Origin: Escherichia phage vB_Eco_T-01
Length of the DNA: 64,000 nucleotides
Strand: one strand, 5' to 3'
Sequence record: PQ438391.1
Under the pieces are notes generated by a model. The model made no database searches. It saw only the letters and a program-made list of their open reading frames with translations, and was not told where the DNA came from. The translations under genes and the position numbers were made by a program. The first letter of the stretch is position 1. Each line of letters begins with the position of its first letter. Below are positions 34,267 through 35,685 of the stretch, one piece after another.

Positions 34267-35685
34267 ATGGCTTTTACAGTTGATATAACTCCTAAAACAC
34301 CTACTGGAGTTATAGATCAGACTCAGCAGTTTACTGCTACACCCAGTGGTCAAACTGGAGATGGACCTATTACATATGCTTGGACTGTAGATGATGTTCC
34401 ACAAGATGGAGCTGAAGCAACTTTTAGTTATGTACTAAAAGGACCTGCCGGTCAAAAGACTATTAAAGTAGTTGCAACAAATACAGTTCCAGAAGCTGAA
34501 GCTGAAACAGCAGAAGCTACGACAACTATTACAGTTCAAAATAAAACACAAACGACTACCTTAGCTGTAACTCCTAATAGTCCTTCGGAAGGGGTAATCG
34601 GAACAGCTATTGAATTTACCGCTACTTTAGCTTCGCAGCCATCAGGTGCATCTGCCACGTATCAATGGCACGTTGACGGTTCTCCTGTGGGCGAAGCAAC
34701 TTCTGCTACATTCAATTACACTCCTACCACAAGCGGAGTTAAAACAATTAAGTGTGTGGCTCAAGTAACCGCGACAGATTATGATGCAAAGGAAGTTACT
34801 TCTAATGAAGTGTCACTGACTGTTAATAAAAAGACGCAGACAACTACCTTGGCAGTAACTCCTGATAGTCCTTCAGCTGGAGTAATTGGAACCCCAGTTC
34901 AATTTACTGCTGCCTTAGCTTCTCAACCCGTCGGAGCGTCTGCTACGTATCAATGGTATGTAGACGATTCACAAGTTAGTGGAGAAACTAACTCTACATT
35001 TAATTATACTCCAACTACAAATGGAGTCAAAAGAATTAAATGCGTAGCCCAAGTAACTGCTGAAAATTACAATGAAAAGGAAGTTACTTCGAATGAAGTA
35101 TCATTAACAGTTAATAAGAAGACAATGAATCCACAGGTTACATTGACTCCTCCTTCTATTAACGTTCAACAAGATACTTCGGCTACATTTACTGCTAATG
35201 TGACTGATGCTCCAGAAGAAGCGCAAATTACTTATTCATGGAAGAAAGACTCTTCTCCTGTAGAAGAATCGACTAATGTGTATACAGTTGATACCTCATC
35301 TATTGGAAGTCAAACTATTGAAGTTACTGCAACTGTTACTGCTACTGATTATGATAGCAAAACTATTACAGCAGAAGGTCAAGTTCAGGTAACTGATAAA
35401 GTTGCTCCAGAACCAGAAGGTGAATTACCTTATGTTCATCCTCTTCCACATCGTACTTCAGCTTACATCTGGTGCGGTTGGTGGGTTATGGATGAAATCC
35501 AAAAAATGACTGAAGAAGGTAAAGATTGGAAAACTGAAGATCCAGATAGTAAATACTACCTGCATCGTTACACTCTTCAGAAGATGATGAAAGATTATCC
35601 AGAAGTTGATGTCCAAGAATCGCGTAATGGATACATCATTCACAAAACTGCTTTAGAAACTGGTATCATCTATACCTATCCATAA
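34267..35685 (+). CDS. hoc: Hoc outer capsid decoration protein, 472 aa, with four Ig-like domains
   Basis: MAFTVDITPKTPTGVIDQTQQFTATPSGQTG... and conserved C-terminal capsid-binding region ...YIWCGWWVMDEIQKMTEEGKDWK...; T4 Hoc has three Ig-like domains. Confidence 0.92.
   Translation: MAFTVDITPKTPTGVIDQTQQFTATPSGQTGDGPITYAWTVDDVPQDGAEATFSYVLKGPAGQKTIKVVATNTVPEAEAETAEATTTITVQNKTQTTTLAVTPNSPSEGVIGTAIEFTATLASQPSGASATYQWHVDGSPVGEATSATFNYTPTTSGVKTIKCVAQVTATDYDAKEVTSNEVSLTVNKKTQTTTLAVTPDSPSAGVIGTPVQFTAALASQPVGASATYQWYVDDSQVSGETNSTFNYTPTTNGVKRIKCVAQVTAENYNEKEVTSNEVSLTVNKKTMNPQVTLTPPSINVQQDTSATFTANVTDAPEEAQITYSWKKDSSPVEESTNVYTVDTSSIGSQTIEVTATVTATDYDSKTITAEGQVQVTDKVAPEPEGELPYVHPLPHRTSAYIWCGWWVMDEIQKMTEEGKDWKTEDPDSKYYLHRYTLQKMMKDYPEVDVQESRNGYIIHKTALETGIIYTYP
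34540..35112 (+). repeat. Diverged tandem duplication (2 x ~288 bp) encoding two consecutive Ig-like domains inside hoc
   Basis: Unit 1 34540-34824 (NKTQTTTLAVTPNSPSEGVIGTAIEFTATLASQP...) and unit 2 34825-35112 (NKKTQTTTLAVTPDSPSAGVIGTPVQFTAALASQP...). Confidence 0.85.

Follow-up and report, generated by a model that had tools for sequence, protein, structure and literature searches.

The stretch of DNA analysed here (the window, 64 kb in length) contains an intact open reading frame at positions 34267-35685 of the plus strand, which encodes 472 amino acids plus a stop codon. This gene is the hoc (head outer capsid decoration protein) of a T4-type phage. [quoted passage not shown] The window protein matched T4 Hoc (PDB 5vf3_Z, 376 aa) with an E-value of 1e-214 in HMMER searches, and it displays two features of Hoc proteins, namely a capsid-binding C-terminus homologous to about residues 281-376 of T4 Hoc and an N-terminal string of Ig-like beta-sandwiches. 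Direct reading revealed a Shine-Dalgarno-like AAGGA (34256-34260, plus strand) placed 6 nt before the hoc ATG and overlapping the stop codon of inh. A consensus scan together with direct reading revealed a hairpin resembling an intrinsic terminator (35690-35717, plus strand), with the sequence GGGGC-TTCG-GCCCC ahead of a T-rich run, 5 nt past the hoc stop codon. Immediately ahead of hoc and of inh, the plus strand contained no match to the T4 late promoter TATAAATA; the nearest exact match to it lies at 33556-33563 on the minus strand.

The surroundings of the gene are also those of a T4-type phage. Upstream of hoc are an ORF of 226 aa at the inh position (33577-34257) and, on the minus strand, a UvsW-type helicase gene (503 aa; 32015-33526). 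Downstream, two small ORFs at the 24.3 and 24.2 positions separate hoc from the RNA ligase 2 gene rnlB (334 aa; 36265-37269). Comparison of the window ORFs with the T4 annotation showed that the order uvsW-inh-hoc-24.3-24.2-rnlB is that of T4, except that the homing endonuclease gene segE, which T4 carries, is absent from the window. The conserved position of hoc, uvsW-(segE)-inh-hoc-24.3-24.2-rnlB-gene 24, was found in the comparison with T4, vB_Eco_Some, teqdroes, and Sf22. Over 22 kb around hoc, identity to the window was 97.3% in Shigella phage Sf22 and about 97% in RB3 and ZCEC14, indicating that the window comes from a Tequatrovirus.

The window Hoc is made up of Ig-like domain 1 (D1), two middle Ig-like units (A and B), a last Ig-like domain, and a capsid anchor, and hence has four Ig-like domains. 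D1 (34267-34542, plus strand; aa 1-92) aligns to residues 1-92 of T4 Hoc with 89.9% nucleotide identity, and the last Ig-like domain (35119-35406, plus strand; aa 285-380) aligns to T4 residues 189-284 with 84.7% identity. [quoted passage not shown] Its dN/dS against T4 is 0.05, and it is nearly invariant in 50 homologues. Pfam searches detected PKD, BiPBP_C, and Ig_3/I-set signals over aa 121-373, with PKD at aa 195-267 (unit B) and Ig_3/I-set at aa 289-373 (last Ig-like domain).

An AlphaFold2 model built from a 50-sequence alignment (mean pLDDT 84.3) displayed four all-beta Ig-like beta-sandwiches, with pLDDT averaged over 10 residues mostly between 87 and 96 in the Ig blocks. D1 was modelled as a beta-sandwich with pLDDT of about 83-93, and units A and B each formed one beta-sandwich. 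Meanwhile, aa 381-472 were predicted as helical with low pLDDT in isolation, as might be expected of a capsid anchor that takes on order only once it is bound to the capsid. The best PDB matches in Foldseek were strings of four Ig domains, namely Sidekick-2 Ig1-4, Dscam1 Ig1-4, and ICAM-5 D1-D4; the Hoc of RB49 (3shs) was matched as well.

The two middle units form a tandem repeat. Tandem Repeats Finder reported a single array spanning 34555-35123, with 2.0 copies of a 288-nt period, 77% matches between them, and a score of 684, and an ungapped repeat search paired 34531-34818 with 34819-35106 at 75% identity; the preliminary description had placed two units of about 288 bp at 34540-35112, within a few bases of these results. 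Following the codon frame and the boundaries of the structural domains, the first middle unit, of type A, occupies 34543-34830 (plus strand; aa 93-188) and the second, of type B, occupies 34831-35118 (plus strand; aa 189-284). The units are arranged head-to-tail, in frame, and have equal length (288 nt, 96 aa). They are identical at 217 of 288 nucleotides (75%) and 78% identical in protein, while 20,000 shuffles gave an expectation of 74.7 +/- 7.3 of 288 (z = 19.5). No further 288-nt match above 120/288 was found on either strand within the 64-kb window. Thus, with 78% amino acid identity, A and B resemble one another more than they resemble the other domains or the rest of the window, as expected of a tandem duplication. 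Comparison within L003, a homologue of the same architecture, gave 24-40% identity between the middle units and either D1 or the last Ig-like domain.

Alignment to T4 Hoc established which unit is the surplus one. The HMMER match falls into two overlapping stretches, one pairing T4 residues 1-107 with query residues 1-107 and the other pairing T4 residues 93-376 with query residues 189-472 (558 bits), which means that the window Hoc holds precisely one surplus block of 96 aa. Unit B corresponds to T4 domain 2 (88% nucleotide and 87.5% amino acid identity), and unit A, with 76% and 80% identity to the same domain, is the copy absent from T4. Closer nucleotide identity, 93-94%, links unit A with the first vB_Eco_Some unit and with the only middle unit of teqdroes. 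The intact ORF, the T4 alignment, and the AlphaFold2 model together uphold the earlier statements that this Hoc has 472 aa against the 376 aa of T4 and that the additional length corresponds to an additional middle Ig-like domain.

Comparison with other Hoc proteins placed this architecture among known ones. T4 Hoc (376 aa; PDB 5vf3, 8t1x; GenBank AAD42581) is collinear with the window in its genomic slot, D1, last Ig-like domain, and anchor, but has a single middle unit where the window has A plus B and is 96 aa longer. The 472-aa Hocs of vB_Eco_Some, vB_EcoM_G2540, PP01, AR1, slur02, SHFML-11, and Yersinia phiD1 have the same architecture and gene length (1419 bp) as the window, and the 472-aa Hocs of Tequatrovirus display only allelic differences from it (90-95.4% nucleotide identity). 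The Hocs of 568-570 aa (UGKSEcP1, UGKSEcP2, ESh26, vB_Eco_OMNI12) carry A and B in the same order as the window and differ from it by one further unit, of type C or hybrid, which amounts to five Ig-like domains.

Variation of Hoc domain number among T4-like phages is already stated in the literature. Hoc homologues are described as carrying between 1 and 10 Ig-like domains in a string (PMC10385173), with two in phage PNJ-9 (PMC11853027), and with ten in Serratia phage Muldoon and one in Enterobacter phage PG7 (PMC11853027, PMC10385173). These three proteins share with the window a conserved C-terminal anchor and a variable Ig string, but are distant in sequence and differ in domain count. The Hoc-like protein of Klebsiella phage PMBT63, which is about 46% identical to T4 Hoc, has four Ig-like domains, one above T4, and was shown to be retained on mucin (PMC13435897). 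Relatives of Hoc in IMG/VR had 179, 279-282, 367-378, 471-472, and 1107 aa (21 loci), a breadth of 1 to about 10 Ig domains; these 21 loci were not used for the counts given below. Two of them, L007 and L008, from another lineage of Tevenvirinae, encode four-Ig Hocs of 471-472 aa that are about 50% identical to that of the window. In these, it is the last Ig-like domain that is duplicated (copies 58-80% identical), whereas the window carries the duplication in the middle domain, so the two events were independent.

Four-Ig Hocs turned out to be frequent among close relatives of the window phage. The window hoc matched 656 phage records, the best being vB_Eco_Some (95.4% identity, also 1419 bp). 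Among 51 full-length matches, taken as an evenly spaced sample of the match ranking, the matched span was 1419-1425 bp in 18 and about 1131 bp in 33. Unit A alone, used as query, matched 616 records at 890 places, and of 60 sampled records, 36 contained one copy of the unit, 21 two copies, and 3 three copies. Among the matches listed, the 120 protein cluster representatives included 77 of 376 aa, 29 of 472 aa, and 9 of 567-570 aa. The longest form is exemplified by UGKSEcP1, whose hoc measures 1707 bp. Public Tequatrovirus records are thus about 60% three-Ig, about 35% four-Ig, and about 5% five-Ig, percentages that are approximate because the counts include GenBank and RefSeq duplicates. The four-Ig counts are based on record spans and on one-unit copy numbers per record; counting by 80% query coverage was rejected, since the joined BLAST pieces of a three-Ig gene cover 79.7-100% of the query.

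Hence, a four-Ig Hoc is much more ordinary than the preliminary description had assumed, being present in about one third of the Tequatrovirus genomes sequenced, among them the long-known phages PP01 and AR1 with their 472-aa Hoc. The four-Ig Hoc is an ordinary, already sequenced and annotated variant and not a new one. The window allele itself is at most 95.4% (nucleotide) and 94% (amino acid) identical to any public allele, compared with about 97% between the flanking genome and its relatives. Sf22, the nearest genome overall (97.3% over 22 kb), has a three-Ig hoc. When unit B is removed from the window hoc, the remainder matches the three-Ig hoc of teqdroes in a single piece at 95.9%, while the best four-Ig gene reaches 95.4%. 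In these sequence comparisons, Hoc domain number does not follow genome lineage.

The divergence between the two units provided insights into their age. They differ at 71 of 288 nucleotides, 46 of these 71 differences being at third codon positions, and the longest identical run that they share is 15 nt. By the method of Nei and Gojobori, A and B are separated by a dS of 1.44 and a dN of 0.126 (dN/dS 0.09), and both are under purifying selection. The orthologous parts of hoc in the window and T4 have a dS of 0.17-0.44, indicating that the copies are far older than the split between the window phage and T4. This comparison substantiates the earlier view of an old and diverged duplication.

The same divergence bears on whether the repeat could be an artefact, in which the middle domain was falsely duplicated or the hoc alleles of two co-infecting phages were stitched in tandem. 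Tandem repeats are a classic site of mis-assembly, and the copies are known here from assembled sequence. However, an assembler would neither generate nor confuse copies with 71 mismatches in 288 positions and identity runs of at most 15 nt, and the reading frame of hoc is intact. Furthermore, the first units of other four-Ig genes are orthologues of the type A unit (93-94% nucleotide identity), and the A-B arrangement is present in independent isolates such as vB_Eco_Some, PP01, AR1, slur02/04/11/13, SHFML-11, phiD1, and BASEL phages. With copies 25% diverged and an architecture that recurs in hundreds of independently sequenced phages, an artefact, which the preliminary description had also dismissed, has a practically negligible probability, and we rejected it. 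A contingency or phase-variable locus, which would call for short and nearly identical repeats, was likewise rejected as a candidate, since the 288-nt units are 25% diverged with identity runs of at most 15 nt; changes in the number of hoc units were observed in comparisons between genomes.

Clustering of 166 units from 121 proteins resolved the middle units into types A, B, and C, in addition to a hybrid class. Nucleotide identity is 74-80% between types and 85-95% within a type, regardless of the genome in which the unit resides. Type A comes first in 36 of 38 multi-unit arrays, B comes second, and C last. The most common architectures were B (40), A-B (22, the window included), A (21), and hybrid (18), followed by A-B-C (3), C (3), A-C (2), and a few others, and all observed architectures are ordered subsets of A-B-C. 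Type A is the sole middle unit of many three-Ig genes, for instance those of teqdroes and L006. As sole units may be of type A, B, or C or chimeric, single-unit Hocs do not constitute one lineage.

Explicit chimera fitting of 77 three-Ig representatives classified 24 as about pure B, 20 as about pure A, 20 as A-to-B chimeras, and 13 as B-to-A chimeras. The middle unit of T4 is itself a mosaic, of type B for about 225 nt and then with a type-A-like ATDYDA patch. A simpler scheme of A/B diagnostic sites, derived from the differences within the window, was abandoned as too noisy, with 5 type-diagnostic positions across phages. Units from much more distant lineages were also observed grafted into otherwise Tequatrovirus-like Hocs, as in P0076 and in the case of the type-6 unit recovered by the clustering.

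These data also speak to the possibility that the additional domain is a recent, lineage-specific gain, that is, a duplication of domain 2 by which this phage or its immediate ancestors enlarged a three-Ig Hoc like that of T4. Such a gain would agree with the three Ig domains of the reference phage T4 and of about 60% of its sequenced relatives. Nevertheless, the A/B dS of 1.44 is several-fold above the divergence between window and T4, types A and B are each common to many phages at 85-95% nucleotide identity, type A stands alone in many three-Ig genes, and the documented transitions go from four domains to three. We regard a recent gain as highly improbable.

The clearest of these transitions involve the three-Ig genes L028 and L029 (OP072537). 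Each is identical at 1123 of 1131 nucleotides to the four-Ig gene L027 from which a 288-nt block has been removed in register, with zero mismatches in the unit. Their breakpoints differ, falling in microhomologies of 11-14 nt at unit offsets 111-122 and 129-142, and fits of their units to pure A or pure B are 23-39 mismatches worse than the deletion chimera. L027 is from an ENA assembly, and L028 and L029, the clearest products of deletion, were recovered from metagenome or MAG assemblies; a k-mer collapse is an unlikely source for them, as the units are 78.5% identical. Because two diverged parental units cannot arise from a chimera, L028 and L029 represent two independent and recent deletions from four domains to three. 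Three-Ig forms thus arise repeatedly by deletion, and the three-Ig Hoc of T4 may be derived by deletion as well. The preliminary description had spoken of four domains instead of three. The count itself is correct, while the gain relative to T4 that it implied is at odds with the recurrent loss displayed by the data. A pure model of unequal crossover is only partly adequate, since B-to-A chimeras are the better fit for 13 of the 77 single units; one simple unequal crossover of the sampled parents cannot produce these, which call for gene conversion, other parents, or exchange between phages in addition.

Based on these findings, we consider it very probable that the four-Ig Hoc stems from an old A/B duplication and represents a common length polymorphism subject to recurrent in-register deletion. 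On this reading, A and B are ancient paralogues that originated through intragenic tandem duplication of a 96-aa middle domain, and purifying selection maintains both in function. The A-B array is then one state of a Tequatrovirus length polymorphism that comprises one, two, or three middle units. Recombination of the T4 type, acting at short stretches of identity between the diverged units, repeatedly removes exactly one unit in register, and the products are single-unit Hocs of type A, B, or C or of chimeric type.

A different origin for the array was also considered, in which A and B were once divergent alleles in separate lineages that were joined a single time by illegitimate recombination during co-infection and then spread. 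In its favour are the free recombination of T-even phages, the mosaic nature of hoc alleles, and the distant-lineage units of P0076 and of type 6 as examples of grafting. Yet an ancient duplication in place equally predicts old, diverged, and ordered units, and both models accommodate the exact 96-aa register common to the units as well as their strict order, A-B-C. We judge the joining of alleles to be unlikely, and it would alter only the account of the origin, not the nature or action of the feature. An in-place duplication remains our preferred reading.

A broader proposal, which we put forward tentatively and hold to be possible rather than probable, is that an ordered A-B-C array is genus-wide, that T4 Hoc is a deletion derivative of it, and that ongoing microhomology deletion, exactly in register, together with exchange between phages maintains the polymorphism of three, four, and five Ig domains. 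The near-saturated synonymous divergence between units may have been favoured as a brake on recombinational collapse. No description of a Tequatrovirus A-B-C array or of this population-level picture was found in the literature searched on extra or duplicated Hoc Ig-like domains, which yielded the account of Klebsiella phage PMBT63 and statements of a general kind. The picture of units ordered A-B-C, of repeated deletion at microhomologies, and of a T4 form that is possibly derived is the one part of our findings that may be unreported.

T4 Hoc forms a fibre of about 180 Angstrom with four domains (PMC10385173), from which we infer that the extra domain would lengthen the fibre by about one Ig domain, or about 40-45 Angstrom. 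The Ig domains of Hoc bind fucosylated MUC2 glycans, for which PNJ-9 needs S183, L184, and T185 at the end of domain 2 (PMC11853027). The window Hoc displays NEVSLT, the motif to which these residues belong, at residues 180-185 and a second copy at 276-281, and the extra domain would add a second surface able to bind fucosylated mucin glycans. A longer fibre with an extra glycan surface would alter how far the phage reaches and how avidly it binds, whether in mucus or on other surfaces, and longer reach and higher avidity are the consequences that we infer for the extra domain; the preliminary description had likewise suggested that the number of domains may tune them.

Meanwhile, the Hoc of PNJ-6, a close three-Ig relative, has its MUC2 site in domain 1, and its isolated domain 2 did not bind (PMC11150434). 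A doubled domain 2 consequently need not double glycan binding. The residue critical in PNJ-6 is E29, whereas both the window Hoc and T4 Hoc have Q29.

T4 Hoc is widely used as a scaffold for display and vaccines, and as a model for the adherence of phages to mucus. For the window phage alone the significance of our findings is small, as four-Ig Hocs are common and variation in domain number is already in print. At the level of the group, roughly 40% of the close relatives of T4 carry one or two extra middle domains by nature, which indicates that fibre length is variable while capsid binding is kept. Natural pairs of three-Ig and four-Ig genes that are close to isogenic thus exist for studies of reach and avidity. 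The A-B repeat is also a substrate for recombination, so that therapeutic or engineered phages may lose a unit, an event that can be tracked by a simple PCR. Should the reading of a genus-wide A-B-C array be true, the length of the Hoc fibre would be a selectable trait matched to the habitat of the phage.

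The hoc gene (window positions 34267-35685) is more diverged than its surroundings. It displayed at most 95.4% nucleotide identity to its nearest relatives, whereas the surrounding 22 kb (window positions 24000-46000) reached about 97%. Divergence is also uneven within the gene. Compared to T4, the Ig domains displayed 85-90% identity and dN/dS values of 0.23-0.27, versus 96.4% identity and a dN/dS of 0.05 for the capsid anchor. Judged from these alignments, the Ig domains are evolving much faster than the anchor. This pattern fits exposed Hoc domains that are either under diversifying pressure or recombining.

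The gene neighborhood also differs from that of T4. In T4, the GIY-YIG homing endonuclease gene segE lies between uvsW and inh, whereas here these genes are separated only by a 50-nt spacer (33527-33576) with no further gene. Gene order comparison revealed the same segE-less spacer in the Tequatrovirus relatives vB_Eco_Some, teqdroes, and Sf22; the difference is a presence/absence polymorphism of the kind typical for mobile endonucleases. The polymorphic site lies right beside hoc. The ORF that takes the place of T4 gene 24.3 (35775-35990) encodes a DUF2774 winged-helix protein of 71 aa, against 56 aa (171 nt) annotated in T4 and 61-71 aa in relatives, a spread that probably reflects start codon choice or annotation variation.

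The best sigma-70-like match of the region, TTGACT-16-TATAAT (35003-35030, minus strand, 11/12 in a consensus scan), lies antisense within middle unit B of hoc. Since such matches were fewer than expected from shuffled sequences, this one probably arose by chance.

Some database labels attached to hoc matches are probably misleading. The 32-kb GenBank record MG010123.1, titled "Staphylococcus phage SAJK-IND", contains a complete four-Ig hoc with 93.3% identity to that of the window; most likely, this record belongs to a T4-like coliphage and was mislabelled or contaminated. Likewise, the Hoc protein cluster P0017 bears the source name "endonuclease [Shigella sonnei]".

Four-Ig Hoc proteins have also arisen by another route. 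Two IMG/VR contigs from another Tevenvirinae lineage, L007 (2501-3919) and L008 (2501-3916), encode Hocs of 471-472 aa that are approximately 50% identical to the window protein. In these, it is the last Ig domain that occurs in tandem duplicate (copies 58-80% identical), a duplication independent of that of the middle domain in the window.

Other homologues displayed a mosaic organization. The 567-aa cluster representative P0076 combines a Tequatrovirus-like domain 1 with a first middle unit of type A. In mosaic Hocs of this kind, the type A unit is nearly identical to that of the window, and the middle units and last Ig domain downstream of it derive from a far more distant lineage. A second case, revealed by unit clustering, is a 472-aa protein whose second unit is the sole member of the "type 6" class. 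Collectively, these mosaic proteins imply that individual Ig units are exchanged between diverged phages.
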